A stretch of DNA of 61,584 bases, counting the filler, from Basidiobolus ranarum (lineage: Eukaryota): NCBI GenBank assembly GCA_040143965.1. It is 11 parts of 11 records of this genome, joined end to end, with 100 filler letters (N's around TTAATTAATTAA, not from the genome) between each part and the next. Parts side by side here need not be neighbours in the genome. Positions count along the whole stretch, not along the records: positions 16,848 to 22,361 come from JASJQH010001574.1; 10 more parts are not named here. The stretch is one strand, 5' to 3'. The notes beneath the pieces are model-generated. The model ran no database searches, was not told the DNA's origin, and was given only the letters and a program-made list of their open reading frames with translations. How positions within the stretch are numbered: the stretch's first letter is position 1; the number at the start of each line of letters is the position of its first letter. This document shows, piece after piece, positions 5,519 to 61,584 of the stretch. The position numbers and the translations under genes were made by a program.

Positions 5519-5618
5519 NNNNNNNNNNNNNNNNNNNNNNNNNNNNNNNNNNNNNNNNNNNNTTAATTAATTAANNNNNNNNNNNNNNNNNNNNNNNNNN
5601 NNNNNNNNNNNNNNNNNN
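5519..5618. other. Artificial contig linker (N44-TTAATTAATTAA-N44)
   Basis: Identical 100-bp six-frame-stop spacer. It recurs at 11134-11233, 16748-16847, 22362-22461, 27973-28072, 33583-33682, 39191-39290, 44799-44898, 50400-50499 and 55994-56093. Confidence 0.99.
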
Positions 5619-5667
5619 TAGCCATATAGCTAGCTACCTAAATTCCAATAAGTTATTATGAGATATC

Positions 5668-6009
5668 TGTTGAAATTAGCATTGCCTAAACATCTATATA
5701 GTCAAATATAGCTTGGTATTTAGTTATCTTATATTGAACTAAGATATTAACTATTATTTGATAATGGAATTTACTTGGAATATTGACACCAACCAAGTAC
5801 TCAGATATACAGATTTTTCAACTTGTGCTAGAAGCCCCAAACTTTGCACACATGTTCCTGGGACCTTCCTCCACATATTCTATGCATTAGTTTGTTTACA
5901 TCGTGACAAAACTACAAATGTCAACTGAATACTCAATAAATCAATAAGTGAACACCAATTTCTCTAATTTCACCAAATCACTTCCAACAGACTCCCAAAC
6001 ACTTTAACA
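5668..6009 (+). mobile_element. Solo LTR, copia family A (~345 bp)
   Basis: Begins TGTTGAAATTAGCATTGCC and ends CTTTAACA (TG...CA with short TGTT/AACA inverted ends); close copies elsewhere in the window. Confidence 0.8.
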
Positions 6010-6024
6010 GTGTGTTGGCAAAAC

Positions 6025-6188
6025 ATTTGTATCCTGGGACCTTCCTTAACACATTCAATACGTTGGTTTGTTTTCATCTTGACAAAACTATAAATTGCAA
6101 CTTTCCGCTCAATAAATCAATAAGTGAAAACCACCAATTTCTCTATTTCTCCAAACCACTTTCAACAGGCTCCCAAAATACTTTAACA
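6025..6188 (+). mobile_element. Partial second copy (3' half) of LTR family A
   Basis: cctgggaccttcc...ctcaataaatcaataagtgaa...ctcccaaaatactttaaca repeats the 3' half of 5668-6009. Confidence 0.75.
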
Positions 6189-8849
6189 AATATAAGATCG
6201 ACAACTTTGTCATGAGGATCTCGAGTGAGTTCCTATAGATGACCTGCCGAATGAATTTGCTTCGAGTACAATCAACTATATTTGGGTGGACATAGGAGAA
6301 AATAAGGTTTTTTTTGTAAGGTCATCACCACTTTTGAAATTCTAAGGAGCATCATATTCTTACATCTATACTTAAGAATTCTGCTGAAGTGGAATCTCTA
6401 GTAATACGGTTATTTTTATCTAGTATATACTCCAAAAGATCGGAATTTAGATATTAACAGCCATACTTCTGCTAGTTTCAATGTATTCATTTGGGCACCA
6501 AGTTTGATGTTGTATTTCATGAAATATATGCATCAAACCAGATTTTTTCGAGTACTTTACTTGTTTTAGCTTGGATAGTTCTGTGCAAAAATGTGTAGGC
6601 TTGCTTGTTGAGTACCCAGAATAGACTAACAATGCATCTATTAGAAATTAGTATTTGAGCGTAACCCTCTTGAATCAAAGGCAATACACCTTTCTTCTCT
6701 GTGAGCTAACCAAGGATAAACCAGAAAAGGCAAATGCCTAACTTGTAGTATAGTCTAATAGTGTTACGGATGTATTAGATTTGTATATACAATCATTACT
6801 ATAAAGCCCACCTCAAACAATAAGCCATTGATATATGTCTAGCCCTCAAACTGCCTAGAGAAATATAGATAATATGAGAAATATCGACAGTTTAAAGTGG
6901 AACATCACAATACCTAGGAATTATTCAAAAAACGTGTTTCTTCGGGTTTGCTACATGTTCCGCTCATACTCCCATACACAATTCATATGAAAAATATGAT
7001 ACAATGAAGAAACGGGACGCGAAATCTTGAATTTCAACACGCATTGTAAGGTGGTTGAAACAAGTGGAATACCAGCAGAACATCATCAAGATACCAAAAA
7101 TAACTCACACATATCCAAAGTATTTCTAATGTCTAAGATATTTACAATGAATTTTGCTATGTTTCTTCAGATATAAAATCAGAATGCATGATCTATTTAC
7201 ATTAATTCTCAATGTATCTAGTATTTCTACAATATATATAGATGTAGCATTAAATCAAACAAAAGATCTACTTGCTTGTCTCCATTGAGAGTCAAAACAT
7301 CCCACCGATAGACAGCAAGGTAAAATCTACGTTATCTTCAATTTCCAACTATAGGCAGGCATATTAGATAGTTCCTCATTTGTGATCTCTATGTTGGTGT
7401 ATACAGAAATCAGAATGAACTTGGCCAAGCTCGGATGGGAATATAATGATACTAGTAACAGAAGAATGGCTTTTATTTCTTACTCAAGATTTGTACTCGC
7501 AAGAACCCAAATCTTTTCTAATCGGATGATCAACAAAGACATGACTTTACCCAGAGAGTAGCCTCGATTACTCCATTTGACCCCACTCAAAATATGATCG
7601 ATGTATTAGATTCATCAATTTATATCGGTGCCAACATGCCCCAACTCATCTGTATGGATCAGGAAGGTATCATCAATTATCCGGAATTGGGTAAAGCGTT
7701 GATGCCTGAAGATAGGTGTGATTAGATGTCCACCTGATGTTTCAAAATTGAAGCCAAGCTGCCACAACGTTGTTTAGCTTCTACACTCTGGAGTTTCTAC
7801 CCATGAGTTGCAAAACACCCTTTGTAAACAATCGAAGGCATCGGAGTATTATGGGATATCACCAGAAGTGCTAGCCCTGGTCACTAAATTATCTTGGGTA
7901 TGAGCCTGAAATATACTTCTGGTAACTGCCTTGGAGCAGATGACATGGTACACAAACCTTATGCCAGAGCGTGATACATACACACATACTTAACGATCCC
8001 AATGTAGTAGGAAGCAGCCAGAGTGTCCTCTTCATACAGGTCATGGTTTAAGTGATAGACCAACAAATAGCGCCAGATTATATAGCATCAACATTCTTAG
8101 AATAGTGGTACAATATATACACTTACATACAATGAGATTTTGGTTATTTCGTGTTAATTGATTGGGAGGATTTCGGAACAATCAACTCTCATAGTGTGTG
8201 AAAAATCGTGAACCAATCTGAATAAGACAACTTAGGTAGGAAGATAATATATCCTTCTGAGTAATAAGATATGAGCCCGTAGCAGTAGAATAAAAAAGCA
8301 TCAAAATATATAGTGTGTAGGCTAGAAAATGAAATTTCAGTTGAAAGTGGATGTATGAGCGGTGGTTACACAGCGTACATTACGACATAAAAACCAAAAG
8401 GTAGAAAACATATTTCACTGAGAACTATTAATATTTTGTTTCAAAGCTCTATAATTAGAATAACACCAGTTTTGATAAGAAAGCATCCAATACAACTTTC
8501 AGTGTTTGGCATGAAGATAGCTCTTTTCCTTCATCATATGTCAGGCGTAATATGTTATCTTTCTCCAAAAGAGTGATTTCGGCTTTTTTTTGTTGTTAGC
8601 ATAGTGATTGATAGATTGGGATCCATCTAGTACAATAGACACGGAGGTTTTTCATGTTGTTAGTCTCAATGAAGAAATACTTCACTTACCGATGGTGGGT
8701 CTGCGCCAATAACTTGCCATTTTGATCATACCTAATGAGTAGCCTTTAGTAGCTTCAACCTATTTAGTAGATTTTGACAAAATATGGTAATTGCCTATTT
8801 TATGACTCGACATGCATTTAACAGTAGACTCATTTCAGTTTCAAGCCAC

Positions 8850-10250: not shown

Positions 10251-11233
10251 TACGAATGGTTCGATTGCACATTAATGCTTATTGTCAGATGCATGGCCGA
10301 GACTTTGGCCCAATCTCTATTCTAGCTATTGTGCTCTTTTGGTTCGCGTGTGGTTGGGACTTATTTGTTGAAATTTTGCCCTCGAGTGGTAACTTGACTT
10401 ATGTTTATTTCCTACTAAGGAAATCTTTGAATATATTGCCAGTATTCTATCATGAAATTATTCAACAACCGGTGTAGATCCAACTTCATAATAGTGGCTG
10501 CTAGCATTAGTTCCCAAAATAACTTGGGCGCACTCAAGCCAAATAGGCATGATGTTAAGACTTTCTCCCTCGATGTTGGATAGGTGCTCCTTTGGTGAAC
10601 AATGTTATGGGTTACCTGGTTTTACCAACAGGCTTAACATTCATATTGAATGGTGTGCGAAAGTCTATCTTTAGGTTGCAAGACGGTTCCCCTGATTGGT
10701 GGATCTAAATATTCATATATCTAGTAAAGCAAAGGTTTTTTATAGATCCAAGTGTGAGCCAGCTATTCAATAATCGTATTCAAATCTGAGCATTGACTTA
10801 ACGGAGTGTGCTACGATAATACGGATGCTACCTCAAGTTAATATAAATACTATGGTTTTGCTCTAGTGATTCCCCACTCAATAGAATCCTCTTGCAATGA
10901 TCTCACTTTCTAAGTTTACAATTATTTCGATTCTTGCTTTCTCTTTGGTAGATTGCTCGCTTGCTCAAGAATCTGGTAGTGCCATAGGCTCCGTTTCTTC
11001 TAGTCCTAGTGTGGTTTCAACCGTAATCGGCGGTCGTAGAAGAACATTCAAATTAATATGCCCACCTGTATAAAGATTCTTTAGGCTGCACATTCCAGCC
11101 ATGATGAGAATGAAAGAATTATGAATCTTGTTGNNNNNNNNNNNNNNNNNNNNNNNNNNNNNNNNNNNNNNNNNNNNTTAATTAATTAANNNNNNNNNNN
11201 NNNNNNNNNNNNNNNNNNNNNNNNNNNNNNNNN

Positions 11234-11408: not shown

Positions 11409-11534
11409 AAAGAAAAGCAGTTATGTGCATTGGTATGTGTTCCCGCAATATTCAGTAAGCAAAAATTTAATATGCTAACCATGATCCAGCAAAGTTTATA
11501 TTTTTGACTCTAATACTAAATGTTATTAAGGTAG

Positions 11535-11882
11535 TGTTAAAGTATTTGGGAGCCTGTTGGAAGTGGTTTGGAGAATTAGAGAAATAGGTGGTTTTCACTT
11601 GTTGATTTATTGAGTATTCAGTTGACATTTATAGTTTTATCAAGATGTAAGCAAACTTACATGTAGAATGTGTTAAGAAAGGTCCCAGGAACATTTGTGC
11701 AGGGTTTGGGGCTTCTAGCACAAGTTTGAGAAATCTATATATATGAGAACTTCTAAGTTGGGGTCAATATTCCAAGCAAATTCCTCATGAGAATAATGGA
11801 AAATATCTTGGTGAAATATGAGATAACTAAGTACTAAGCTATATATGACTATATAGGTGTTTAGGCAAAGCTAATTTCAACA
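11535..11882 (-). mobile_element. Solo LTR, copia family A
   Basis: Reverse-complement copy: tgttaaagtatttgggagcc...ggcaaagctaatttcaaca. Confidence 0.8.
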
Positions 11883-12608
11883 GCTACAACTGTGTATCTA
11901 ACAGTTTATACAGAGTCTAGAGATAAGTCAGACATAATGAAGATAATTTTGCTACTCTTAATGATATTACTAAAGCTCTATCTGCAAAAACTATGTATGA
12001 TAAGCTTGAAAGCATTGCCAATATTCTTTTGACTATTATTCTTGAATATTTACATGGATACAGTTTTCCGGCATTAAATGCATCTCTCTGTATCAGTAAT
12101 TGCTCAGCCCGCACTTAGTAAAGCATCAGAATCTGGAATGCAATAAATTTTCCTATAATGCCAACTATTACGCTCTGTATAGAGATGAAGAAGATCAGGG
12201 TAATAGCCCATTTTGTCACGTGAGAAATGACTTCGAAAAAAGTGAATCAGTTTATTACTAACTTTGTGGATCGGTGACCGCGTGTGTGATTTTGGATTTA
12301 AATCTTTAAATATGAAAGATATCATCACTAGAGGAGGCTAACAAGATCGAGTACACAAACAGCATGTTAATCTTAGTGTGTGCAATAAAGCCAGTTGTAA
12401 CTCATCATATCTTCTGACATAGCAGACACAATCTGGATACCAGGACAGGGACATGGAATTACTCGTTTAACTCCAAAGAAATGTCGCTAATGCTAGAAGC
12501 GATATGATGTTGGAAATGAAAGGAAGCTTAGCCCCAGTATATTGATTGTTATGAACTAATTGAATGTATACATGCTATCAAATTAAAAAGATTTAAAATT
12601 TTGCGATT

Positions 12609-15920: not shown

Positions 15921-18852
15921 CAGAAATGACAGGAATTAATCAGTAGATTTTAATGTAAATACCTTAAAACTTGATGGTAATTACGCTTGCTTTCAACTCT
16001 ATTACCGTTATTATTATTATGCGGATACACGTTTTCCTAAATTCAACTGTATGGTTCCTTACTAGAGTTTTATAAAAGTACCCGAAATGTTGTAAACACC
16101 AAAAATCATACAGGATATGGCAATTTACCATGTTTGAAAACCTGCGACATTTGACCCATTGCGACTTTGATTATTAATGAAGGCCAGATACATTGATTGA
16201 ATATGGCTCATGCAGATTTGGTTTTTACTTGGCCTATTCCAGGAATTTATACACACGGCCATTTTTTGTATGTTTCAGTAGCTTAATATTTATGGATTAG
16301 GGGGATGAAAACACCAGGTGGTGTGGCTTTATGTAGCTTATATACTAATCCAAACAAAGTGACAATCAAGACAACAATCTTTTAACATATTGTGACAAAA
16401 CTGGATCATATCTATACTGAAATTGATGACCAATGTAATCAAGTTCTGCAGATGTAAATATAGTGTTAATGGGCAAAGGTGGTATGTAGAAAGGAAGGTA
16501 TTCAGTATAAACTAAATGTACAATAGGACAAAAACATGGAATAATGGGGATAAAGAAAGGTGTTTTGCAGGCAAGATAAGGTTAGGGGGAGACAGTCACC
16601 AAAAGGTGAAATCTTTATTTCAAACAAAACAAAGAGGCCATAACTACTTTTGTAGTTTCTTAACTAATGTATGGAGATCTGGAGTATTTGTATGAATGTT
16701 GCAAAGCAGAAAAGTTAAGTCAGTAGAATCTAAGACACTGTTAAGTGNNNNNNNNNNNNNNNNNNNNNNNNNNNNNNNNNNNNNNNNNNNNTTAATTAAT
16801 TAANNNNNNNNNNNNNNNNNNNNNNNNNNNNNNNNNNNNNNNNNNNNGTCAAGAGCATTGATCTAAAGGCTCATACAGACATAAAAGTAATATTCAGGGT
16901 TGCTATTTGGATATGCTATCAGGAAACCAGAGAAGGCAAGCTGAAAAAGAATGTTCTTGCTGCATCCTCAACGATTGGCCTTTCCAATATGTAACAATTG
17001 TTTCCATTTGAAGCCTAAACACTTTTCCTTTGGGAGGTTGATTGGGTGAATGGGCCGTTTAATATAGCCGCATTGGCCAGTATATTTCCTTGATTGTTGA
17101 AACACTCCCGATGTGGATTGTCGTGAAACGGATTTAAAGAAATGAGGAAGAAATCTCACCGAATGATTTGCGCGTCAATGAGGGTTTTCGCAGTGACTAG
17201 TTGTAAGAGCATGGGCAAGAGGATGGGGATGGGGATGGATCATCTAGCAGGTGCATATAGTGGCAATTCATTGGCACGGTAATATTCAGCAAATAGAGAT
17301 GACATCAGAATTGCTTAATACCTGGAAATTAATATTGCTACGTCTGCCTTTGTGACGCAGAATTTCTAAATCTCAATATAAGAAGAACATTCGAACTTAA
17401 TGCAGGTATTAATGGAGTTACCGATTTTAAGTTAGAAGGGACCGAGACCTTGAACAAGGGCAAGGGTCAAGGGAGAATGTGACTCTAGTGTAGCGGAAAA
17501 TGGAACTGAGTCATATCGTAGATTGATATCTATAATTATCCGCTGATCCTAATTTAGTCTAGCCAATCACTTCATGCCTCCTCTTACCTCAATCGTCTGG
17601 GAAGATATATTTGTAATCCAAGTACAGCACTGGGCTGTAGTACTAATAGCGTTAATGTTTCTTCTATACGTTGTTGTGAGTGCGTATATAGTAAAATCCT
17701 CAGTATGTCTAGGGGTTTCATACACTTCAACATGGCATCTTGAAATCTACACAACGTGATCAAGCCAAGTTATTTGTTCTGCTGTGGCCGAAATATATGC
17801 CTTTTAATCACCCCCCTGCTCTTCCAGTAAATGGGTTCATGCGTTTCAGGTTTGAATCTTGATCACTCGACAACACATAGATTATCTACTTCTATATTCA
17901 CCTTTTCGACAACTGCAGAGGCTCAGTATTGTTTGTAGTAAATTCCAAGTCCCCACTAAACTAACAAAATGAAGTACATATACTCACAGAATCGCGTGGG
18001 ACAACTGTCAGGAATTGTGATGAGTCACCGGTTGTTATTGGTACCATATTAAACTAAATAAACTCGATGTTCCACCATACAATTTCTAGACGTAAAGTTG
18101 GCAATTGGCAACGTTACTAGATCAATTGGTGTGGCATATAATGATACTTGAAGCCAAGAAAAGGTTCCATCTAATATATATCTACAGAATTGATAATCAT
18201 GGGTGGGTGTGGACGCATATGTCGTTCATTATATACCAAAGCTATCCATGTCTCAATGAATTACTCCATTTCTTACTGGTGCTTATTAGCGCAGTGTAGG
18301 TTTATTCGTGCTTGTTCTTCAACAGCAAAATATATATTACAGTATTTCATTCTACTGATACAATATGCAACATTGCTGCTTCTCACGTATTTGAATTTAA
18401 TTTACCAAGTTAGGAAATATGCAGCAGTGTATTACTAAAGTAACTTAATAATCGAATTAAACACAACAAAGGTTGGTATTTTGACCTTTACTATCCTTTG
18501 CAGCACATACTATAGAAGTTTTTGTTATTATATGGATAATAAAAGTTTAGATACGATATTTTTGAGCAGTATTTGAGTATTCTGAAATTATCATCAGCAA
18601 TCAAGGTTTATGGCTAACGGGATCATCTATGTGATTCATGGACGCGATATCTGGTTATCCACTCGAATAGAATAGCCCAAGTGCAGATTTATGGAGATAG
18701 TCGCAATATGTATATACGTGTGTAATAGTGTGTTTCCTCAAAGTGGATGAGTTTGAATTTGGAGAGAGTTGGGTCTGATTATATACCTACCACACTCTCA
18801 TGTTAGCATTCATTCTCGTGCCTAAGCCACCAATCTTGCACCTACTATGAGA

Positions 18853-21222
18853 TAAGTGAACAAACAAATTGTAGACAAATTGTGTGTGATTCGTTGCTGT
18901 AACTCGTCAGTTTTTTTTGTGAGTATATGCTTAACAAACTTTTCTATCCGTAAACTAAAAAAAGGATGTCAATTCGCTTTTTTTCTTCTCTATATGGAAC
19001 CACCTCTAAAGATTATAGCAGTCAAAAGCTCAATCGCTGGTATTGGGTGGAAGCCACAATTCGTTCCACTACTCGTGTCACTTGTAGCTAACGTTCATAC
19101 CCTTGTGTCCCATACGTTTTCCTTTTTGAAGTACATCTTTACTCATGAACTGGAACGTGCTCCTACGTTTCTTTTAGAGGATTTCATTAATGTTGGCTAT
19201 TTTAGGGAAGTCTTTCTGTCACTCCTCAATAACTACAAGCCAGACAAACAGAAAGCTTAGACAGAATCAAGAGCCTACAAAGATCTAATACTCAAGTATC
19301 GGGATAAGTACTTTCAGTGCTGTTCTTACGAACTAGTCAACTGGAAGTATACTCATCAGATATCTCCTTATGAAGTGACAAAAAATTGTTACTGCTTATC
19401 TGAACGGGGTCAACCTTCAATTCGGAAACAAAGTTGGAATGTTTCTCAACTTGTTCTTGAAGAAGAATGAAAAAATCAAAACGCTGGAAAGCAAAATGAA
19501 GAAGAATAGGGGAAGCGAGAAAGAGATTACGGCAGTTATAAAGACAATAACAGAGCATATGAATAAGGTCAAGCTTGCTATTTCATCAAGAAATATTGAA
19601 GATATACCTAAAGAATTTCTGTCCTCAAACAATTTGGATATGATCCGTAATCTTTTTGGCGCGTATTCGACGGATTATCGATTTGCAGAAGACTCAATCT
19701 ATTACGACTGCAAAAGCAACCCTCTCAAGCATATAAAGGCGTATGCCAGACTATCAAGCATGTGCAAAGTTCTCCAAAACAAGCCATTCAACTGCTCTCC
19801 TTTAAGAAGGGGTTTCATACCTACATGACAATCGATACGTATATTTTAAATACTCAAACCTTAGAGAATTCTGTCACCAGTCACTTGGATAAAGAAGCAA
19901 TATAGGAAACAGTTATTGACCTCACACCAAAGGTAATGAAACCACAAGGAAAAAATAATTCAACGAAGTTTAGAGGTACGATATACACAGATGATGTAGG
20001 TGTGTCAGTGCTAAAGCAAAACCATAATATGAAGAAGGGTGGCAGTGGTGCAAAGTCAAAGTCTCTTGCTTCAGAAGAGGAGTTTCAGTATGTGGAGAAG
20101 TTGGGAAGAGAAGAGTTGTTAGTCGGTGTTGGCAAATGTGTGCTAATTGATCCTGGACGTCGCGATTTGCTGTACTGTGTGCACGAAGAAAGTACCGCTG
20201 AAAACAAAATGGTTTACCGATATACAAGCAACCAAAAAGCAATTGAAACAAAGTACAGAAAATTCAGGAAGCTCAGAGAGAACTTAAAGACAGACCAAGT
20301 CATCGCAGCTGAGCTTTCCCTATCGCATTTGAAATCTCCAACCATCAACAAAGACAAGTTTGCATCTTCAAGGAAAAGCCGAAGTCACTCCGGTCCTGAG
20401 AGCGTATTACTCGAATGAAGATCGCCCTGCAGGAGAAGACCGGCGTACCAGGGGTTTGTTACCCTTTAGAAAAATGAAGCTCTCAAGTTTCAATAACCAG
20501 CTACAATCAGACAAATGGCTTGCCAAGAAGCTTCGAGAGAAGTTTGGGAAGGATACTATATTAATACTTGGTAGCTGGTCGGCTGGGAATTAAAGTATCA
20601 TGAGCCCAATAGAGGCATCGGAATGAGAAAAATGTTAGCCAAAGAAGGCCTCTAGCTATACCTCCTTGACGAGTTTAAAACTTCAAGTCTGTGCCCTACT
20701 TACCAGAACGGTGAACTGGAAAAGTATAAAAAAGTACAAAATCCTAGACCATACAAAAGGGAAAAGTATCCTATTGTATATCGTCACGGCCTTTTAAGGT
20801 AAGCGCTTTTTACATGCAAGTAAAAAAATTTCAAATTCAAACCTAATTTCTGCTCAGGTGCAAAAACCAACAGTGTTTAAAGGTCCTGACCAACACTACT
20901 GAGGTAACTACTGAATTTTCTCACCATCGTCTTTGGGATCGTGACCTGGCTGCTACTTTAGACTTTAGACATATCCTTTTTAACTTGTCTTCAACTATGG
21001 AAAGATCAGAACATTTTTGCAGATTGGAAAAACCCTCTCCACCGGGTATAAAATAAAGGGTATCTCGTCAGCTAGTAACCGTCGACCAACGAAAAAAGCA
21101 AACAATCCTGTGTGATTATAGCTACACTAAACATTTGATACAGAGTAAGTCTTTGAACACTTTTTCTTTGGGCAAGTGTTTACAAAAAGAATGGGCTGTA
21201 TCTGATTTGGTTTGTTCACTTA
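18853..21222 (+). mobile_element. Non-autonomous TIR DNA transposon carrying a Fanzor gene (TA target duplication, Tc1/mariner-IS630-like ends)
   Basis: Left TA|AGTGAACAAAC-AAAT (18853-18869) and right ATTTGGTTTGTTCACT|TA (21205-21222) are inverted repeats. Only Fanzor coding sequence lies between them, with no transposase. Confidence 0.8.
18994..21056 (+). pseudogene. Fanzor1 (eukaryotic TnpB-like RNA-guided RuvC endonuclease), disrupted; one intron 20799-20857
   Basis: FIP.YMTID, FRGTIYTDDVGVS, RuvC-I LIDPGRRD (D 20149), LILGSWS, RuvC-II LLDEFKTSSLCP (E 20671), HGLLR|CKNQQC zinc finger, RuvC-III LWDRDLAA (D 20943). In-frame stops (19258, 19903, ~20653) and several frameshifts. Confidence 0.88.
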
Positions 21223-21240
21223 TGTCCAATTTATTGCGAT
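21100..21240 (+). ncRNA. Candidate Fanzor omegaRNA (scaffold to right end 21220, guide from flank ~21221-21238)
   Basis: Nested stems GATACAG(21137-43)/CTGTATC(21196-202), TCTTTG(21150-55)/CAAAAAGA(21183-90) and AACACTT(21156-62)/AAGTGTT(21174-80), between the ORF end and the right TIR, where Fanzor omegaRNAs are known to lie. Confidence 0.55.
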
Positions 21241-21935
21241 CGTCCCATTGATTTCTTCAATTCGTCTGATTTTAGATTAAAACACTGTAAACTCAGAGCA
21301 ATATGTATGAAATAATAGCTGGTCAATGACTGAAATGTATGACCTTGACCAAGTAGGTGTATACCTAAGGATCAATTGACATATATCATCGTGAACTTTA
21401 AAACCATCTATCAACAAACCAATTCAACTCATAAGTTATGTATGAGTCCAAATAAACTTATTTCCACCACTGTAAGAGAGCATTGCTTACTATTTATCAT
21501 ATGAGATCTTTTCACTGGGCTTCTTACACGTGTAGCTCACTAAAAGTATATATACATTCTCTTTTCTAACAAATATTTGTCTGTAGATGCTATAAATAAC
21601 TATCAATTTATGGTATATTGCTACTCAATACTGAGTGTTATCTCCATTATAAGATTATTGATTATATTATAGATTGACTAGTATCTGTTACCAGATCAAT
21701 CCAACAAAAAGAGAGTAATAATACACATAATCCAACAATAGTGCTAACCTAAATCATATTCTTTCAATTATCAAACCCCAACCCTATCTTAATTTAATTG
21801 ATCACTAAACTCGATGCACTCTTAAACCATTTTGGCCTTGAGAGAATCATCGACGGATATAGTAGACACTGACACAAAGCGAATATATTGTCGAAATGAC
21901 CAAATTTATTGGATATATGACATTTAGAAAGAAAA

Positions 21936-22361
21936 TTAAGCAGAAAGATCCTTCTTGAGGGTACCCATGAAAGCCTTCTTCTCTTCGGCAGTTTGGAAAC
22001 GACCGTGCCCGAATTTGGAGGAGGTATCGACAAACTTGAGGGAAACCTTTTCAAGAGCAGATCTCTTGGTGTGAACCAAAAGAGATTTACGGAGGGTCAA
22101 GACTCTCTTCTTAACACCAATACAACATCCCTTGATCATGATGAAGTCCTCCTTAACGTTACCGTAATGAGGGAAACCACCCATGGGGGTAATGTTCTTG
22201 GCAGTAAGATCGTACTCAGTAGAAGCAGAGTTCATGTCAGCACCGTTGGCAATACGATAGATCTTCTTGTTAACCTCAGTACGGTGATGGAAACCATTTT
22301 GACCAGCACGAGGAACTGAGTACATGACACGGGAAGGATGCGAAGCACCAATACAAGCAAC
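21936..22361 (-). CDS. RPL3: 60S ribosomal protein L3 (uL3), C-terminal part, truncated by contig end
   Basis: [45 protein letters not shown]. Confidence 0.98.
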
Positions 22362-22461
22362 NNNNNNNNNNNNNNNNNNNNNNNNNNNNNNNNNNNNNNN
22401 NNNNNTTAATTAATTAANNNNNNNNNNNNNNNNNNNNNNNNNNNNNNNNNNNNNNNNNNNN

Positions 22462-26661: not shown

Positions 26662-27008
26662 TGTTGAAATTATCATAGCCTAAACACCTATATAATCATC
26701 AATAGCCTAGCATTTACTTATTTCATATTCCACAGCAATATCACCCACTATTCTGAAGAGGAATTTTCTTGAATTATGTTTGTGTGCTTGGAAGTACTTA
26801 TATATATAAACTTTTCAGACCTGTGCTAGAAGCCCTAAACTTTGCACATATGCTCCTGGGACTTTTCTTACTATATTCCATATGTTGATTTGTTTACATT
26901 AGGACATAAGTATAAATGCTAATTTAATACTCAATAAATCAATAAGTGATAATACCAACTTCCCTAATTCTCCAAACCACTTCCAACAGGCTCCCAAATA
27001 CTTTAACA
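26662..27008 (+). mobile_element. Solo LTR, copia family A, with degenerate 5-bp TSD
   Basis: TGTTGAAATT...CTTTAACA flanked by ttcat / ttaat (4 of 5 identical). Confidence 0.8.
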
Positions 27009-27272
27009 TTAATAGGGTAGAAGAGCCACTAGAGTAAGCTCATATACCCTCCTAGTACTTCAATATTGATTGCATGAACAAATTTATGAGATATACCTAG
27101 TTACTAAATATATGTTGGGGAGGCTTCACTAAATGATTGTTTAACAAAATGAACTAAATATGTGATAATCAATACTTAAGACCAGGAGCAGTAACAAACA
27201 GGAAAGTAGAAAAGTAGGATGATACTTTGCTACATAGCACACTTTAGTGATAAATCTCCAAATATTGGATAT

Positions 27273-27618
27273 TGTTAAAATGTTTTGAGAGCCTGTTAGC
27301 AGTGGTTTGGAGAACATGATAGATTGATCATTGTCACTCATTGCTTTAGCCAGTAGAAAGTTGACATTCATAGTTTCTTCAAGATATAACTAAGCAAATT
27401 TATAGAATTTGTTAAGGAAGGTCTCATGAACATATGTGCAAAGCTTAAGGCTTCTAGCACAAGTTTAAAAATATGTATATTTGAGAACTTCTGAATTGGT
27501 AAAATATTCTATGTAAACTCCAATTGAGGACAATGGCTAATATTTAGTGAAATATAAGATAACTAAGTACTAAGCTATATATGACTATATAGTTGTTGAG
27601 GCAATGCTAATTTTAACA
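27273..27618 (-). mobile_element. LTR family A copy, inverted relative to 26662-27008
   Basis: tgttaaaatgttttgagagcctg...gaggcaatgctaattttaaca. Confidence 0.75.
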
Positions 27619-27639
27619 CCTGCAGCAAGTGTGTAAAGC

Positions 27640-27972: not shown

Positions 27973-29231
27973 NNNNNNNNNNNNNNNNNNNNNNNNNNNN
28001 NNNNNNNNNNNNNNNNTTAATTAATTAANNNNNNNNNNNNNNNNNNNNNNNNNNNNNNNNNNNNNNNNNNNNGTGATGCAGCATGGTTGTCATCCTTCAC
28101 GTGACTCGCACAAGAGATTATTTTTCTGGCATAGATTAGTGCACACTTGTCACACAAAACAACTTAGAGCCTTCCGTGCACATATAGCAAAAGATGCATA
28201 TAGAGATATTGAGGCATTGAGACATTACTAAACACAGTATCGAATCATTCACCATTCAAAACCAAGTCAATCAGATCAGTAATATTTGTAAGAGCATCCA
28301 ATAATAAATAGTGACACCATGTCTTATATTATTCCACCATACAAAGGTTAAAATCGTTATTGAGGCTCTATGTGACCATTATGATCGCATGATCTGACCC
28401 GTTATTGATGTGCTGAATCTGAATAGCCAATGCTTAGCTATATGGGAGACGCTGTCACTTGCAGATCTGGTAAGTGTGCGTGTATCAAGCCCATTCTTGT
28501 GCTTAATGGAAGAAGGCTTTGTGGATTCGAAATCCGTGTTGTTGAAAGTAAGCATTGAATTGAGTAACAAGTTAAGGATTGAAGGAGCAATTCGTAGTGT
28601 TACATACTGATTTGATGGCTACACATATCTATAATTTTCTTTATCGGGTGAATTACGGGTCCAGCTCAGTAATGATCATGAACGGCGAGGTCGCTTACCA
28701 ATGGTAAATGGTTAAAACGGTCACATAGCCCCAAAAGGATTCTTTGCCATCGTGGATAAGAGTTGTTTTGAGTGAGGGTTTATTCTATTGTGAGTTGAAG
28801 ATGCATTCGATTCGTATTCAATCTGGTATCCGGTTTGTTTTGGTAAGGCACTGCAAATATCTACTTTAGGTCTAGGTTATTTACCATTGCTTCACCTACA
28901 TGTCTCGGACCAGTCAGAGGTAATATTCACAGGAGAAATAGCGTAGAGAAAAATAGTAGCCGAATTTCCGACTCGGCTTTATTTACAATGATGATCAATA
29001 AGGTAAGTGCCATTCAAATCTACTGATTAACCTTCATTCACATGGCATTTCATATCATTTTTGGATAACATATTCAGCAGACATTCCTTTAACACTCTAC
29101 TCCGCCCTATACTGAAATAAAATCTCTCTGTTTTCTTAAAACAAAGCTGCGGGAACGCCAATTCAATCATTCACAAATCTACGAAGATACTTTTTACAAT
29201 TCTCGAAATGACCAACATTCTATTCTAATCA

Positions 29232-33369: not shown

Positions 33370-33582
33370 TCAAAGAATTTCTAAGTTGGTAAAAATATTC
33401 CAAGTAAATTCCAATTGAGAATAATTGATAATATCTTGGTGAATTATAAGATAACTAAGTACTAAGCTATGTATGACTATATAGGTGTTTAGGCAATGCT
33501 AATTTCAACACTCTCCCTCAACTAAATAGTCATATAAACTAATCCTAATAAAGGTCTAAATTTCTCAAATTTCTGTCTAGCT
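33370..33582 (-). mobile_element. Copia 3' end: RNase H tail, PPT and partial 3' LTR (family A)
   Basis: Minus strand ...KFEKFRPLLGLVYMTI*, GAGGGAGAG PPT, then TGTTGAAATTAGCATTGCC; same as 27640-27730. Confidence 0.8.
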
Positions 33583-34419
33583 NNNNNNNNNNNNNNNNNN
33601 NNNNNNNNNNNNNNNNNNNNNNNNNNTTAATTAATTAANNNNNNNNNNNNNNNNNNNNNNNNNNNNNNNNNNNNNNNNNNNNAAAGATTGCAAATATTTG
33701 GGGTATTCAGTCTTGCTTTGGACTTATTCCATTGTACCAGGATTTATCAGACCTTGGATCAATATATTTGAGTAAATGTGATTGAAATTGATCATGCCAG
33801 AGGGTGCTGGATAGTGCCAAATTGTGCCGCATAAATTTTGGAATACTTTATCCAATATGATATATACAGCACAATCTGGCACTATCATAGAGAACAAGTC
33901 CTTTATGTACCCTTTTAAATAGTGACTGTGAATCAATCATTGGTATACTTCGCAGATTATATGGGTTAGGAGATAATTCGACATGAATTAAAATTATTGT
34001 GAAAACCCCACCTCACAGTCAATCCTGATTTAGATCTCGATTCACGTTGGAATATCATTTTCTATTATGGGAAATTGTCATGGTACATATGATGGATTTT
34101 TCCCAACAAAAGTTTGGTGACACATGGGAATGTGGGGAGTAATGGGGATAAGTGGGACAATACTGGGAAACGCTAAATTGTGAAGCTTGAATTCAATATC
34201 TTAAACAATAAATTATTTACTGCTCAGAATTAAAAGCATGGTAAACTAGCGCTTGCTCGGGGTTACCATTTGACATGATCGGTATCTAATGAGATGAACT
34301 ATACATGACTCTGTTCTAAATTGATTTTCTTTTGAGGTTATTCAACAGTGACACTTACCTTGGTCACGTTTAAAATCCTAGGTCTTTGGATTCCCGGTTT
34401 CTTCTCACTGATATTCCGT

Positions 34420-39190: not shown

Positions 39191-39290
39191 NNNNNNNNNN
39201 NNNNNNNNNNNNNNNNNNNNNNNNNNNNNNNNNNTTAATTAATTAANNNNNNNNNNNNNNNNNNNNNNNNNNNNNNNNNNNNNNNNNNNN

Positions 39291-43699: not shown

Positions 43700-44898
43700 C
43701 TTGAAGAAGCTGACCAAGTGAGATAAAACAAGTTACATAGCTATGGGCAATTATTATTCCCACAGAAATTGGAATATCATTTAGTGTGATTAATTAACCC
43801 ACCACCAATTCAATTGATTGCCTAAAAATTTAGATCTCATTAACAAATTAAAATTAGCTCATGGTAAGAAAGTCGTATATTGAAGCAGGCTTCATAACTA
43901 CTTTAAGTGGGTTTAACAAGAGCACGCTCCAGGCTGACCATGAGCTGGTAAATTTGGTAACTCCTCATTTAACATGCAGCTTCGAAGATTGGAAACGCAA
44001 CAATACGGATTTAACAGATTACTCCTAAAAAGCCATCACCCACTTACTAATAATGGGGCATTGATCTTGGAGCATCTGGCAACAGAGATCAAGCTTCACT
44101 TTGTATACAATTGGATCTTCTGTCGTCAACATTATCGAAATCCTGTATCGGTGTTAGTGGTATGAAGAAACTGCGATCGAATCACGCGATTAGACCATCA
44201 ACGCAAGTAGCGTAAATTCATATCGCCAACAAAGGTAAACTCTTCATGTACCGAGATATTCAAGCCGAGCGATTATTGGCGATTTCGAGCGCTGCCTGTT
44301 TTGTCTGTACACTGGATTTAAGAAACGTCGAAAGAACGTATCTATTGGCTTAGGTAGCTTTCATTTGCTATGTATTTATGGGTTTCTGGTAAAATACCTA
44401 ATTCATAAAAAACTATCACCCCATTTTGATACTATATATGCACGTTTTGCTCCCATAAATTCTGAAAATTCGGGTCTAATACGGTTTTATGTCACCTGCT
44501 AATATCGCAAATAGTTCAGGTCACGCTCACTTCCATTTTACTTGCTGCATAAAAACCCAAAATAGTGGAGATAGACGGATCAAATGATCTAGGTCTGATC
44601 CACTAAAGGCAATCATTTTTTTATTCTTCGTTCACTCGATCACTATTATTGATTCCCTCAGATTGATAAATCCATTTATTCTAGAGCATCTTAACACATA
44701 ATCCCTTTTGACACGCTGCTTACCTACAAAGAGCGAAACTAATTGAATGAACTTTGAGGCTCACAACAAGTCTAAGGAAGGTTACTGGTCTCCAGAAGNN
44801 NNNNNNNNNNNNNNNNNNNNNNNNNNNNNNNNNNNNNNNNNNTTAATTAATTAANNNNNNNNNNNNNNNNNNNNNNNNNNNNNNNNNNNNNNNNNNNN

Positions 44899-50399: not shown

Positions 50400-50949
50400 N
50401 NNNNNNNNNNNNNNNNNNNNNNNNNNNNNNNNNNNNNNNNNNNTTAATTAATTAANNNNNNNNNNNNNNNNNNNNNNNNNNNNNNNNNNNNNNNNNNNNA
50501 TCTTTTGAATGTGCAATAATGTCTAAAAGTACTTTTCTTAAACATACCACATAAGTAAAATAAACTGTTTCCAAAATGGTATATAACATCGTCCCAGATA
50601 GTGCCCAATCATGCCAATTTGTGCTGGCACACTTTTTAGCTAGCCTGATCTGGCTCAATAAAATGGATCAAGTCTCTACACTATATATGGGGTGACATGA
50701 TTGGTTAGGTTTCATGGAATGTTCCAAAGAACATGACTTTGATATAAGGTAACCTGGATGAACTAATACAAGAGTGCCAAGAAGGGATGGTGCAGCAGAT
50801 GTTATGTCGTAATCTAATAATAGAAGAGTTCTATTTGCAGTGGATCAGTATGCCAAGATCAGAATTGTGACAATATAAATGGCTCCAAAACTACTGGCAA
50901 ATGATTTTAGCTCAGAAGATACTTTGCCAACTCAAGCATCCAATTAGGA

Positions 50950-53900
50950 GTTCAATAATGAGAGTAACAATGCATCAGAGATAACTGATACAGGTTCAGC
51001 AGATGCGCTTCCCTTCTATTTACCTTTGCAGTTAGCAAAAACTCTTGGTCAATCTTTACCTCAGCAAGCATTATTTGATCAGGTACATGGGAACTCATCA
51101 CAAGCATGCCATGCTTTATCTGATTCAAATGAGTTTGATCACACACATACCATAGATCAAATATTGTATCAGCCTTTGCAGCCCATTGAACAAGAGCCAC
51201 ATTCTTTGCCAGAAGAGCTGGAAGAGCCCAAATCATCTGGCTTAAGGTGTTGCAGGTGCAACTAAGATACTCAGAGCAACACAATATGTAGTTAGCATAT
51301 ATTCATTAATATACCTCATTAAGGAATGAGCTATGTATTCATTTGATGTCCTCCATGCAATGATTAAGACCCACTAATATTTGTCTACCCATTGAATATT
51401 CTTATTAAAACAAAACCTATCTACTGCAAGTCCAATATTTTCAAAGAGCAGATACATATTTCTCACTTATATATACCTAATCATGGAATCAAATTTGACA
51501 GTGAAGATAGTCACTATGGGAAGTTGTGCCATTCCTGTGTGCATAATTCAAGTAATATAGTTGAATAAGTATAGCACAAGTCATTTTAGTATTAATTTTA
51601 AATAGTATTCTGCCTTACATTTTACTTGCTAAGGTATCTGTTCAGTAATCAAAACACTGATCAATAACCAATTGTTGTTTCCAATATCAGAAACCATGAA
51701 TTTTTAAATATATGAGTTTCAAGTAGCAAAGAAATTTTAATATAAAGTATCACCTAGTCAATCTTTTTTGAGGAGTTATGGTAGATGGTTGCATCTCTGC
51801 AAGGGGAAGTTGTATTACGCAAGTCTAGTTAGTATAAGAATTCCTACTTAACTGCAGATGATTATTCTCTAAGTTGTAACATATTTGAATGCGACATTCT
51901 TTATATACCACAATTGATTTGGAAATTTTATGATATTAAGATACTTACTAGCTGTCAGGATATGCAAACATTCTTGCCTACTTGTTGGAATGATCAACTG
52001 GCAAGATCCTCAACTAAATTACACAGAGACTTCAAAGAACCAAACAAGTCACTTTCACACTTTCCTTTAGGGACAGTACACCACTACTCATCCACTTATT
52101 CTAGAATTGTTCAACAGAGACTGGAAATATATTATATACATAATCTATATCTGTAATCCTGCAAAGTGCATGAGTTATTTGTCATCAAAGCAAATGCTTT
52201 GCATTATAGTACTAATTTTGGGAAAAGCTGGTCAATGAAAAATTTATACACAAATTCCCATTGTTTGAATACTGATGTCACTATTGAAAGTGTTGACTTT
52301 GCTTCAAATGCAACCTTCTTATTAATCCAATCCTCCAACTAAGTGTGACCCATACTCTTCATTTCTTGGCTCCATACCTTTGACATTTATTAGTATCTTC
52401 AGTACCTTACAGACTTTACTTCAAGTGATTTCCATACACTTTGTCAGCTGCACTTTGTAGACTCTATTTTTGGCACTCCTCCTTTCTTGACACCATTCTC
52501 ATTGGCACTTGTAGGCTCTGTTTTAATGTTTCTCTTATATATTGCATACTGGAGCTATACCCATTGCTTGTTAATTGGCTTGGCACTAGATAACTAGTAT
52601 AGAGTATCTCAGTCTGTGTGGTTTTGAGGGATTTATTAGGGCTAAGAATACATAATGTTAACTAGTATATTTCTACAAACAATGCAGGTGCAAACAACAA
52701 GAAGTATGGTGGCATTAAAGGATGAACATGGGCAATACTTCCAACAAAAGTCTATGTGGTGCAAAAGATAATTGAAAAAAAAATGAGTATAGATAACATT
52801 TTTGACTATAAATGTCCAAAGCCCACTGAAAATTGTGGCACAACAAATGATAGGTGTGAGCAACACTTTTAAATATGATGACAAAGCATACTGACAATCA
52901 ATGTGGAGTATAGTTTCAACAAATTGCTGTGCTAAATCCCATTATAACTGCTATTAATGCTAGTTGCTGAGATTTATCTATGGATTGATCTAATTCATAA
53001 ATGAGAATTATATAGAATGACACAGCCTAATCTATTGCAGATCATAAGCATATGTAATCTCATAATAATAATTTTGTAATTCAAAACATGAAACTAACTA
53101 TTTCAAGCAATATGTTGAGTAAATATAGTATGTATGATTTTGATAAGGCTATCTTTGGTACTACCATGATTATAGTCTAAATATCTGGTAAATTGGCATT
53201 AGATCAGTCAGCATTAGATCAGTCTATACAATTTAGTAGATGATTTAGTAGCTGATTTAGTTGATGATAATTTGTTTATCACCAACTTAGTGTGGTAAGC
53301 TTAATATAATACTTGACACTAATACATATATTCTAATAGACTTACATGCATTTTACTCCTAGCTTGATCTTCACCTTGGTTCTGCTGTAAAGATACTCTA
53401 ATTGCCATCGAGATGGAATACAACCAGAATAATCAGCAGATAACAACAAATAACAAACCTGTTTTGTTGAGAACCCAATCCAGTCCCCCTGCTCAAGCAA
53501 GCATTTACCACCGTTGACAGAAAGAATGATAACTTGAACAATGCAAAGATCCATGGTCAAAATAATTCTGACCTCAAGTATCAGTTGGGACCTAGCTTTG
53601 AAGTTGAAGCTAGAGGTGTAACATCTGACCAGGGAGAAGTTTTCAATTATGGGTCAAGCAGTGATAGCAGTGTTATAGAACTAAAGCATTTGTCTTACTC
53701 AGCATCTGGATTATATATAATGATGTAACCAAATCTACAGCCAGATTTCTCACATTGGCATAACTACCTACTGCATTTATATAATATTACTTTGATATAA
53801 TCTCATAATTTCAAGCAACAAGCAGCTTCACCATCCATCTATATTCAGACATGCATTTACTACCAACAATATGGATAGTCATGAAGTTTTACATTCTTGT

Positions 53901-55993
53901 GTGCACCTTTTGAGTAGTATACCTGAATAAGCACAACACTAGTCATTTTCCCAATGCTACCATTAGTACTACCGGCAGTCTTGTACTGATATTTATGAGA
54001 ACCAAGTACTTGTTAGATTAGTACAAGCTCAGTCTATATACTAATAAATTATTAGCTTAAAATATACTGATCAATAACTCAATGTTATATGTTTGATATA
54101 GCCGTCTTTGTATATATATACTCATTTGTATGTACATGGAAGAACATTACAACAACACATCTTAAACTTAGCTTACTCCTTTCATTGGTTTTGCTGGTTA
54201 AAGTATCAGGCGCTGCTCCTTTGGGTACATATACTAATCATTACGGAAGTGTAATGCAACCAGAACAATTAATTGACTATAGCTCAGGTCAAACGTCCTC
54301 CGCTCACAGCCAGCAAGTATTTGAACTCAGTCTGAGTCAGTCCCACTACTCAAGCAATTATTTACCACCAGTACCAGAAGATGCTCCAATTGTCACAGAG
54401 GTGGAATGCAACCAGAGTAATCAACAGATTACAATGAAGAACAAACTTCTTCAGTTAGGAACCAGCCAAAAAGTGTAGAGGCTCAGTCCAGGCCAGTTTC
54501 CCTGCTCAAGCAAGTGTTTACCACCATTACTAGAAAATATGATAACTTGAACAATGCAAATATCAATGGCCAAGGAAATTCTGACATGAAGTTTCAGTCC
54601 GGCCCTAGCTTTGAAGTGGAGGGAAGTGGCGTAAAATCTGAGCAAAGAGGAATTAAAAAGTAGGGGGCATCTGGAAGTAACAATATTTCAAAAGGAATAT
54701 ATGATGTACCACAGCACTCTGAGAGTGGGTTAGAAGTTGCTCCAATATCACCAATAAAAGATTCTAGCTCTGACAAAGCTTGAGCACCTCAACCAATAGG
54801 CTCAGGATCCAATAATGAGAGTAACAGTGCACAGGGAGTAGACGATACAGGTTCATCAGGGAATTGAGCTCAAGCAGGCCATACTCTGTCCGACTCAAAT
54901 CAGTTTGATCAAGCACACACAATAGATCAAACATTGTATTAGCCTTTGCAACCTATTGAATAAGAACCACCTCCTTCACCAGAAGAACCTGAAGAGCCCA
55001 AATCTTCTGGCTCAAGGTGCAGTAATTGTAGTTAAAAATATGATATGGGACTTATTACTATATTTGCTTTCACCAAACAATTACCTTGTATTCATTAATA
55101 TAAAACATCTAAAGCTCCAAAGTATGAACAGTCTTATTGATTTCTTCTACAGAGGCCCCAGTCAGTTTTAGAAGTAATGTGATTAATTCTAGTCTTGTCC
55201 CAACAATGTGACATACATTCAAACAACAGTTATCTACTCTAAGTGTGACACTATGATACACCAATCAGACAGATCCAGCAGGCATTCAATAGGTAATAAA
55301 AGTAAAAGCATTTTGCTTACTTATCATTCAGATTATATATAGCAACATAGTCTAATCTATAGTAGGATCACTCACATAGGCATAACTGTATGCTGCATTT
55401 ATACAATGCTACACTGATACAATCTCTTAATTGGAAGTATCAAGCAAATTCATTTACATTCAGATACGCATTTACTACCAAAAATGAACATAGTCCCCAC
55501 GTGAAGTTGTGCATCCTTTCAGTAATAAACTTGAATGAACGTAACACGAGTCATTTTGTCAATGCTACCATCAGTACTATCACTAGAGTACTGATATTTA
55601 TAAAAACCAAATACTCGGTAGGTTATTATACAATCAGTCTATATGCTAATAAATTAATAGATGCTAATACATTGATCAGTAACTCAGTGTTATAAGCTAG
55701 ATATACCGCATTTCTCAATATAAATACCAATGAACATACATACTGAAGGACATTAGCGAATACATAAAAATATGCACGTCACATTAGGTCTACTCGTCAC
55801 CTCAGTATTACTTGCTAAAGTTTCCGTGGCAGAAACTCTAATTGTCATAGAAAATCAATGTTATCAGAAAACTCAGAGGATAATACTTCCTCATTTGAAC
55901 AGCCTGGAAGCGCTGAAAGTCAGTCAGAGCCAGTTCCATTACTCATGCAAGTATTCACTACTGTAACTAGAAAGAATGATAACTTGATCCATG
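50950..55993 (+). repeat. Decaying tandem array (>=4 copies) of a secreted-protein gene family with shared upstream region
   Basis: 53758-54120 ~ 55381-55730; 53421-53610 ~ 54409-54620 ~ 55920-55993; 50950-51265 ~ 54808-55035. Signal-peptide-like starts at ~53346, ~54157 and 55772. Confidence 0.75.
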
Positions 55994-56093
55994 NNNNNNN
56001 NNNNNNNNNNNNNNNNNNNNNNNNNNNNNNNNNNNNNTTAATTAATTAANNNNNNNNNNNNNNNNNNNNNNNNNNNNNNNNNNNNNNNNNNNN

Positions 56094-61240: not shown

Positions 61241-61245
61241 TTTAG

Positions 61246-61584
61246 TGTTGAAATTAGCATTGCCTAAACACCTATATAGTCATATATAGCTTAGTACTTA
61301 GTTATCTTATAATTCACTAAGATATTTTCAATTATTCTCAATCGGAATTTACTTAGAATATTGACACCAACTTAGAAGTTCTCAGATATATAGATTTTTC
61401 AAACTTGTGCTAGAAGCCCCAAACTTTGCACACATGTTCCTGAGACCTTCCTTAACATATTCTACACGTTAGCTTGTTTACATCTTGACAAAACTATAAA
61501 TGTCAACTGAATACTCAATAAATCAATAAGTGAAAACCACCAATTCCTCTAATTCTCCAAACCACTTCCAACAGGCTCCCAAAT
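61246..61584 (+). mobile_element. LTR, copia family A (last few bp cut by window end)
   Basis: TGTTGAAATTAGCATTGCCTAAACACC...CCACTTCCAACAGGCTCCCAAAT. Confidence 0.85.

Follow-up and report, generated by a model that had tools for sequence, protein, structure and literature searches.

A left-truncated Fanzor1 pseudogene transposon in a Basidiobolus ranarum contig and its probable transfer from Rhizopus-related Mucorales

We report here on a Fanzor1 locus in a stretch of 61,584 nucleotides of DNA, filler included, from the assembly GCA_040143965.1 of the fungus Basidiobolus ranarum; this whole stretch is called the window below. The locus holds a single gene related to the RNA-guided nucleases of the Fanzor1 family, carried by the remains of a transposon with terminal inverted repeats (TIRs), and the coordinates of all features are collected in Table 1. 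The gene model was obtained by aligning the DNA, with frameshifts and introns allowed, to two related proteins, of which P0009 supplies the complete N-terminus and P0001, from Rhizopus arrhizus, the complete C-terminus. The reconstructed reading frame starts with an ATG at 18994 and ends with a TGA at 21113-21115, covering about 687 codons, with 414 of 565 aligned residues identical to P0001. A sequence-only reading made earlier of the same DNA had stitched the frames into a protein of about 650 codons; the single Fanzor-like frame is confirmed, with its length corrected. The frame is interrupted by TAG stops at 19258, 19903 (where the relatives have Trp) and 20653, and it is shifted, with respect to intact relatives, near 19381, 19820, 20362, 20588 and 21036. 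The motifs named in that reading, LIDPG, LGxWS, DEFKTS, CPTY...CKNQQC and RDLAA, are all recovered in place by the frameshift-aware alignment, with LGSWS at 20567-20581 and CKNQQC at 20859-20876. The three catalytic acidic residues that it had reported as present are kept as well, i.e. the Asp of LIDPG (codon 20149-20151), the Glu of LLDEFKTSS (20671-20673) and the Asp of WDRDLAA (20943-20945). One zinc-finger Cys is replaced by Tyr through the codon TAC at 20701-20703, giving CPTY where all intact relatives have the Cys (CPSC). The position of the single intron is common to the metagenome contig L001 (intron event at L001 4042), which encodes P0001 with 100% identity. On the whole, the copy is a pseudogene of the Fanzor1 family and not a working member, and no open, translatable gene is left, as had been recognised from its stops, frameshifts and lost zinc ligand.

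The gene was compared with proteins and with solved structures. When a piece of 170 aa (19906-20418) is used as query, 45 proteins of at least 299 aa are matched among 1223 candidates, comprising 36 from Mucorales, two from Coemansia (Zoopagomycota) and seven others. The Mucorales matches are from Rhizopus arrhizus, R. delemar, R. microsporus, R. azygosporus, Helicostylum, Thamnidium, Pilaira, Gilbertella and Cokeromyces, the best being P0001 with 73% identity, and the two Coemansia proteins are distant members (30-34% identity). In the PDB, the window pieces match PpFz1 (9cf0; E 5.9e-28, 1.5e-17 and 1.5e-3) and SpuFz1 (E 2.1e-11 and 4.8e-6) and nothing else at E<=1; P0001 likewise matches PpFz1 (9cf0, E 1.6e-140) and SpuFz1 (8gkh, 3e-50), its only two matches at this threshold. 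These matches make the assignment to Fanzor1 by homology secure, in accordance with the identity proposed before. The order of the elements in the Bao-Jurka motif D-X(125,275)-[TS][TS]-X-X-[C4 zinc finger]-X(5,50)-RD is found here in the form LIDPG … KTSSLCPTY…CKNQQC … WDRD, with one of the four Cys being Tyr. In Fanzors the canonical RuvC-II Glu is replaced by Gly or Pro and an alternative Glu lies downstream, according to the part of Jiang et al. 2023 (PMC10530073) that treats this site. The copy here has LGSWS with Gly and the Glu of LLDEF about 35 residues downstream, which is compatible with this description of a rearranged RuvC-II. The profile libraries add little: Pfam gave nothing usable on seven frame pieces and five homologs, the copy searched being without PF26935 (a precomputed protein-database family for the relatives), and its only hint is a sub-threshold Cas12f1-like TNB match in the homolog P0028 (E 0.0011). 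NCBIfam gave nothing relevant for the Fanzor1 sequences. A RuvC/Cas12-like fold is predicted from sequence homology to the solved structures.

The ends of the element become visible by comparison with L001, in which the complete relative is preserved. Between 18958 and 21159 the window is 80.8% identical to L001 over 2229 alignment columns, non-coding parts included (blastn). The TIR arms of L001 (1721-1855 and 4446-4580) are 135 nt long and 89% complementary; both outer ends read TA followed by TAGTGTTTTAATC…, with the TA lying outside both termini. On the right side, collinearity of the window with the two L001 arms extends 67 nt past 21222 and stops exactly at the terminus of L001, with the alignment reaching up to …AAAACACT[G/A] before the TA. 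The true right end is thus 21289. On the left side, no relation to any TIR arm is seen upstream of 18849, and the ~87 nt that would form the outer part of the left TIR, terminus included, are found nowhere in the window by searches with the terminal 26-mer and the L001 outer arm; a blastn of both L001 arms against the window finds the right TIR region as its sole match. The copy is therefore left-truncated at 18849. TIRs stand at both ends of the element in L001; the window copy has a complete right arm and a left arm without its outer part. Since the left terminus is lost, the copy is not mobilisable, even in trans. The 77 nt between the left TIR remnant and the start codon (18881-18957) are not alignable to the corresponding 346 nt of L001 (1839-2184); either one copy has lost sequence here or the other has gained it. 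Four further metagenome loci, L002-L005 (30-42% identity), show no comparable long flanking repeats.

Table 1. Features of the Fanzor1 locus and of the window around it (positions along the window; TIR, terminal inverted repeat).
Feature	Position	Strand	Remarks
Contig carrying the element	16848..22361	.	5514 nt; bounded by spacers 16748-16847 and 22362-22461
Preserved Fanzor1 transposon copy	18849..21289	+	2441 bp; complete relative L001 2860 bp
Left TIR remnant	18849..18880	+	inner part; alignable with L001 1808-1838 and the two right arms
Left TIR of the sequence-only reading, AGTGAACAAAC	18855..18865	+	internal TIR segment
Fanzor1 pseudogene	18994..21115	+	2 exons, 3 TAG stops, 5 frameshifts, CPSC to CPTY; frameshift-aware alignment
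Intron	20799..20857	+	59 nt, GT-AG, phase 2, between HGLL(R) and CKNQQC
Right TIR	21178..21289	+	complete to terminus …TTAAAACACTG; 23-nt internal deletion vs L001; three-arm alignment
Right TIR of the sequence-only reading, GTTTGTTCACT	21210..21220	+	lies within the TIR, 69 nt short of the true end
TA flanking the true right terminus (…CACTG, then TA)	21290..21291	+	
RPL3 last exon	21939..22361	-	141 codons, runs off contig; host marker
Spacers	5519-5618, 11134-11233, 16748-16847, 22362-22461, 27973-28072		N44-TTAATTAATTAA-N44
Spacers	33583-33682, 39191-39290, 44799-44898, 50400-50499, 55994-56093		N44-TTAATTAATTAA-N44
Copies of a repeat family of at least 340 nt	5664-6189, 11532-11886, 26662-27011, 27272-27619, 33373-33581, 61244-61584		both orientations

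The TA flanks together with the CAGTG/TAGTG ends suggest that the element is a non-autonomous DNA transposon of the Tc1/mariner type, CAGTG-type ends presumably resembling those of Tc1/mariner elements. No second Fanzor1 copy is found in the 11 contigs of the window. Among the 12 open reading frames (ORFs) of at least 150 aa in the window, one is a Fanzor piece and one the RPL3 exon, and no transposase is found among the other ten.

The host of the element is identified by its neighbourhood, and here the layout of the window has to be considered. Ten pairs of 44-N runs, each enclosing TTAATTAATTAA, follow one another in steps of about 5.6 kb, and the parts between them decrease steadily in length from 5518 to 5494 nt, forming 11 separate contigs in descending order. 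For one protein encoded in the window, the recorded contig measures 5508 nt, the same as its segment here. The spacers and the steadily shrinking segments mean that the window is a chain of separate contigs and that genes across spacers are not neighbours; arguments from gene neighbourhood are valid only inside 16848-22361, the remaining window being unlinked to the Fanzor1 element. Inside this contig, the last exon of RPL3 follows the right terminus of the element after 646 bp of gap-free unique sequence, in which the repeat search of the window finds no repeat of at least 40 nt; with respect to RPL3, the element lies downstream. Two proteins of Basidiobolus ranarum share 96% identity with this exon and three of B. 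meristosporus share 93-94%, with the next best protein at 86% and Absidia (Mucorales) at 81%; three long plant proteins rank above Basidiobolus by E-value, but with 66-69% identity only. In addition, a different contig of this assembly encodes Per1, with an identity of 71-73% to Basidiobolus and of 43-49% to Mucorales. The RPL3 and Per1 identities show that the host is Basidiobolus-like and so differs from Rhizopus in phylum (NCBI taxonomy). The G+C content is 38.6% for the element and 37.3-37.6% for its flanks, which is non-discriminating, and a tRNA scan finds no tRNA gene on the contig of the element.

The affinity of the element itself is quite different from that of its host. A tree was built with a quick IQ-TREE run from the 45 protein matches and the X-masked read-through of the window copy (551 columns). 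In this tree the window copy lies inside a clade of 17 rows, together with 15 R. arrhizus/delemar rows and one other (SH-aLRT, the Shimodaira-Hasegawa-like approximate likelihood-ratio test, 97), and within the clade it is sister to the 15 Rhizopus copies, which are grouped with a value of 99. R. microsporus, Helicostylum, Gilbertella, Pilaira, Thamnidium and Cokeromyces all fall outside the clade. The window protein is 74% identical to that of R. arrhizus, compared with 63-65% for the R. microsporus copies to the same R. arrhizus protein. When the 36 Mucorales rows are constrained to form one clade apart from the window and Coemansia, the cost is 60.3 log-likelihood units, with a p-value of 0.0006 in the approximately unbiased (AU) test. 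Between the window and L001 the synonymous divergence (dS) is 0.53 and the nonsynonymous divergence (dN) 0.14 over 563 codons. The ratio dN/dS of 0.27 shows that most of the divergence arose between working copies, the decay after insertion being the smaller part. Synonymous sites would be expected to be saturated if the two copies had separated when the fungal phyla did. No Basidiobolus protein is among the 45 matches, both sequenced Basidiobolus proteomes being in the searched database. Together these results point to a probable horizontal transfer across phyla, from Rhizopus-related Mucorales (Mucoromycota) into the Basidiobolus lineage (Basidiobolomycota). The viral contigs scanned for a vector gave seven pattern matches, none of them a relative, and in the literature searched no paper mentions both Basidiobolus and Fanzor.

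Other explanations have to be weighed against this one. According to the sequence-only reading, the element would be complete and small, with TIRs of 11-14 bp at 18855-18865 and 21210-21220 and a TA target-site duplication (TSD), and it would be one dead copy among the members of an uncharacterised Fanzor/OMEGA family that is resident in this genome, together with its partner transposase. The 13-mer TAAGTGAACAAAC, which includes the TA, is perfectly inverted and occurs at exactly two places in the window, 18853 and 21222 (chance expectation 0.17; two or more matches in 0 of 100 shuffles), and the gene does lie alone between the two repeats, so this much of the model stands: a TIR element with Fanzor as its only gene and without transposase. 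The inverted repeat carries on outward through the TA, however (18849-18868 versus 21207-21226, 18 of 20 bases), its counterpart in L001 lies 87 nt inside each 135-nt arm, and the homology to L001 goes on to the exact terminus well beyond 21222; the short repeats are internal pieces of a long TIR rather than termini, and the TA duplication has to be given up with them. Moreover, this family has been catalogued before, a structure exists for the nearest member that is characterised, and neither another copy nor a transposase is found in the 11 contigs. A single decayed copy, acquired horizontally, needs neither a resident Fanzor family nor a partner transposase, and we regard the short-repeat model as very improbable. 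A second alternative has no transfer at all: the contig would be an assembly chimera, or a Mucorales contaminant would be mis-joined to the Basidiobolus-type RPL3 sequence. The assembly is very fragmented, with contigs of about 5.5 kb, the left end is abruptly cut at 18849 beside sequence of unknown origin, and the G+C content discriminates neither way. Against this, RPL3 is linked through an intact right terminus (…CACTG, then TA) and gap-free unique sequence; a mis-join there would be without any shared repeat, a contaminant would need a decayed copy of its own that is 19% from any sampled Rhizopus copy, and the sole other typed contig, that of Per1, is also Basidiobolus-like. This alternative is thus improbable, though less so than the short-repeat model. 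Vertical inheritance from the common ancestor of Basidiobolus and Mucorales, with the similarity kept by slow evolution, might be expected from the fact that Fanzor1 is old and widespread in early-diverging fungi, as Table 1 of Bao and Jurka 2013 (PMC3627910) indicates, and from the two Coemansia proteins as distant members. It is at odds with a window copy closer to R. arrhizus than the R. microsporus copies are, with the low dS and with TIR and untranslated sequences that are still alignable; the AU test rejects the vertical topology, and the host proteins are much more diverged, as Per1 shows. Its probability is accordingly very small.

The transfer from a Rhizopus-related donor therefore remains our preferred reading, and several points weigh against it or against parts of it. 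The constraint of the AU test was composed after the tree had been seen, though it is defined by taxonomy, the tree is of the quick kind, and the window row is a pseudogene with an end branch of 0.24. Pseudogenes are unannotated, so the absence of Basidiobolus among the protein matches is weak evidence. The closest donor copy is still 19% different, from which it follows that the real donor is unsampled. The element is seen linked to RPL3 on a single contig of 5.5 kb, the assembly is fragmented, and a chimeric join is possible. As regards the transposon, L001 is the one complete relative that defines the long TIR and the TA flanks, the inverted repeat includes the TA, so that a TA duplication is indistinguishable from repeat sequence, and the superfamily assignment is tentative, neither a transposase nor a further copy being found in the 11 contigs to confirm it. 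The AlphaFold2 model of P0001 (17 sequences) is too poor to be of use (mean predicted local distance difference test score 52.1, predicted template-modelling score 0.32). Finally, for the guide RNA (omega RNA, wRNA), the 3' region and the three TIR arms fold no better than shuffles (z -0.10, -0.59, +1.11 and -0.07), the fold of the three-arm alignment has eight pairs from three sequences at -0.49 kcal/mol, and Rfam gives no match in a wRNA search of the window and L001. With all this considered, we still think it likely that the locus is a decayed, left-truncated, non-autonomous and transposase-less transposon with long TIRs (ends of TA followed by C/TAGTGTTTTAATC…), having Fanzor1 as its sole gene and likely derived by transfer from a Rhizopus-related source.

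Comparison with known systems places the copy more closely. The most similar characterised protein is PpFz1 of Parasitella parasitica, for which the target-adjacent motif (TAM), the wRNA and cryo-electron microscopy structures (PDB 9CF0-9CF3) have been determined; the passages of Xu et al. 2024 (PMC11423790) used here describe a wRNA of 75 nt in which SL1 has 7 bp and SL2 has 4 bp, a 5'-ATN TAM, and an FRI insertion of about 100 aa in RuvC that binds cyclophilin. Both belong to the same Mucorales Fanzor1 radiation; the window copy is collinear with PpFz1 over REC/WED, RuvC and TNB, and the motifs LxDPGRRD, LGNWS, DEFxTSS, CxxC…CxxxxC and NRD are present in both. By homology, wRNA-guided double-strand cleavage may be a further likeness. 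They differ in that the window copy is a pseudogene, and in that FRI (chain residues 986-1092) is without counterpart in P0001, with which the window is collinear there. This unmatched region indicates an FRI-less sister clade, and by sequence comparison the copy belongs to such an FRI-less clade of Mucorales Fanzor1, closest to R. arrhizus and R. delemar. As a side observation, the R. azygosporus protein P0044 aligns to PpFz1 across FRI (E 3.4e-252), and P0040, P0042 and P0044 fall into a Mucorales clade of their own, which is well supported and consists of longer Fanzor1 proteins (809-882 aa in two cases). Since P0044 spans FRI, Rhizopus holds no fewer than two coexisting lineages of Fanzor1, with this insertion and without it.

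Among transposons, a close parallel is found in Rhizopus oryzae RA 99-880, for which Table 1 of Bao and Jurka 2013 (PMC3627910) lists four Fanzor1 families, ROr-1 to ROr-4; ROr-4 is described in the main text of that paper as MuDR-like with 9-bp TSDs. Like these, as far as that source describes them, the window element is a Fanzor-only TIR element without transposase, and the proteins nearest to its own come from R. arrhizus and R. delemar, one of them (P0002) from RA 99-880. Unlike ROr-4 as described there, it has TA-flanked CAGTG/TAGTG ends instead of 9-bp TSDs, and the host here is Basidiobolus-like, not Rhizopus. The same paper describes PUl-4, in which Fanzor1 lies alone between Mariner-type TIRs with TA flanks; there the Mariner assignment is based on TIR identity to a transposase-bearing Mariner of the same genome, while here it would follow from TA flanks and CAGTG-type ends. 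Spu-1 of Spizellomyces punctatus, which carries SpuFz1, also has Fanzor1 as its single gene, flanked by inverted repeats, and measures about 2.1 kb in the account of Saito et al. 2023 (PMC10432273), and its protein is homologous (E 3e-50 to P0001). According to that account its repeats are of 30 nt, in contrast to about 135 nt, the conserved upstream motif is CA instead of TA, and S. punctatus has many intact and 'ghost' copies.

A possible mechanism may be outlined from these relatives. An intact element would encode a protein of about 690 aa with REC/WED regions, a split RuvC and a zinc-ribbon TNB, as expected from homology with PpFz1 and SpuFz1, and the split RuvC would combine the Asp in LIDPG, the relocated Glu in LLDEF and the Asp in DRD. 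A short wRNA would come from the right repeat and read out into the flanking DNA, and the complex of nuclease and wRNA would then cut TAM-adjacent DNA that matches the flank. The right TIR of the window (21178-21289) would be the presumed template of the wRNA scaffold. TIRs of about 135 nt are long enough that they could house a whole scaffold of the PpFz1 size, and both ends of an intact element could emit outward guides, one per flank. The window copy would be capable of none of these steps, having three stops, five frameshifts, a lost zinc ligand and no left terminus for excision; most probably it reached the Basidiobolus lineage when the transposon was transferred horizontally from a Rhizopus-related donor, and decayed afterwards.

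The sequence-only reading had supposed that the locus may point to an uncharacterised OMEGA system. This is not borne out: as far as the cited passages go, the Rhizopus relatives were catalogued in 2013 (PMC3627910) and the Mucorales PpFz1 has been solved and assayed (PMC11423790), and the locus is a dead member of this already catalogued family. Its value as a nuclease is small, with the copy dead, the family catalogued since 2013 and a relative solved, and no new editing tool or mechanism is to be expected from it. What is new is the corrected long-TIR anatomy and a probable cross-phylum transfer, the latter as the likeliest reading. If the contig is sound, a Mucorales-type Fanzor1 transposon lies inside a Basidiobolus-like genome, which bears on the spread of these elements among eukaryotes. 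If true, it would be a concrete case of the spread of Fanzor between fungi that is speculated on in a passage of Xu et al. 2024 (PMC11423790). A sound contig would bear on the host as well, namely on the openness of Basidiobolus to foreign DNA. Basidiobolus genomes are said to be known as open in this way.

Some minor observations were made in addition. In L001, the frame from the conserved MEPPLK start meets a stop after about 70 codons (2220-2440), and the public gene model P0001 begins at a later Met; this is either an unannotated intron or a disruption of the N-terminus of the supposedly 'intact' copy. Upstream of the Fanzor element of the same contig, the segment 908-1234 holds a perfect 43-nt inverted repeat (975-1017 versus 1192-1234) and a third related arm, and it looks like a miniature inverted-repeat transposable element. 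In the window, five contigs carry members of a repeat family (at least 340 nt, 74-95% identity, both orientations), often near contig ends; the family is probably a further transposable element, at which the assembly breaks. The stretch 50953-55993 contains diverged direct repeats of 48-182 nt with 77-84% identity (families D6-D8, D10, D14 and D15); they span a single contig, which also has a Pre-SET ORF, and look like tandem paralogous gene segments.

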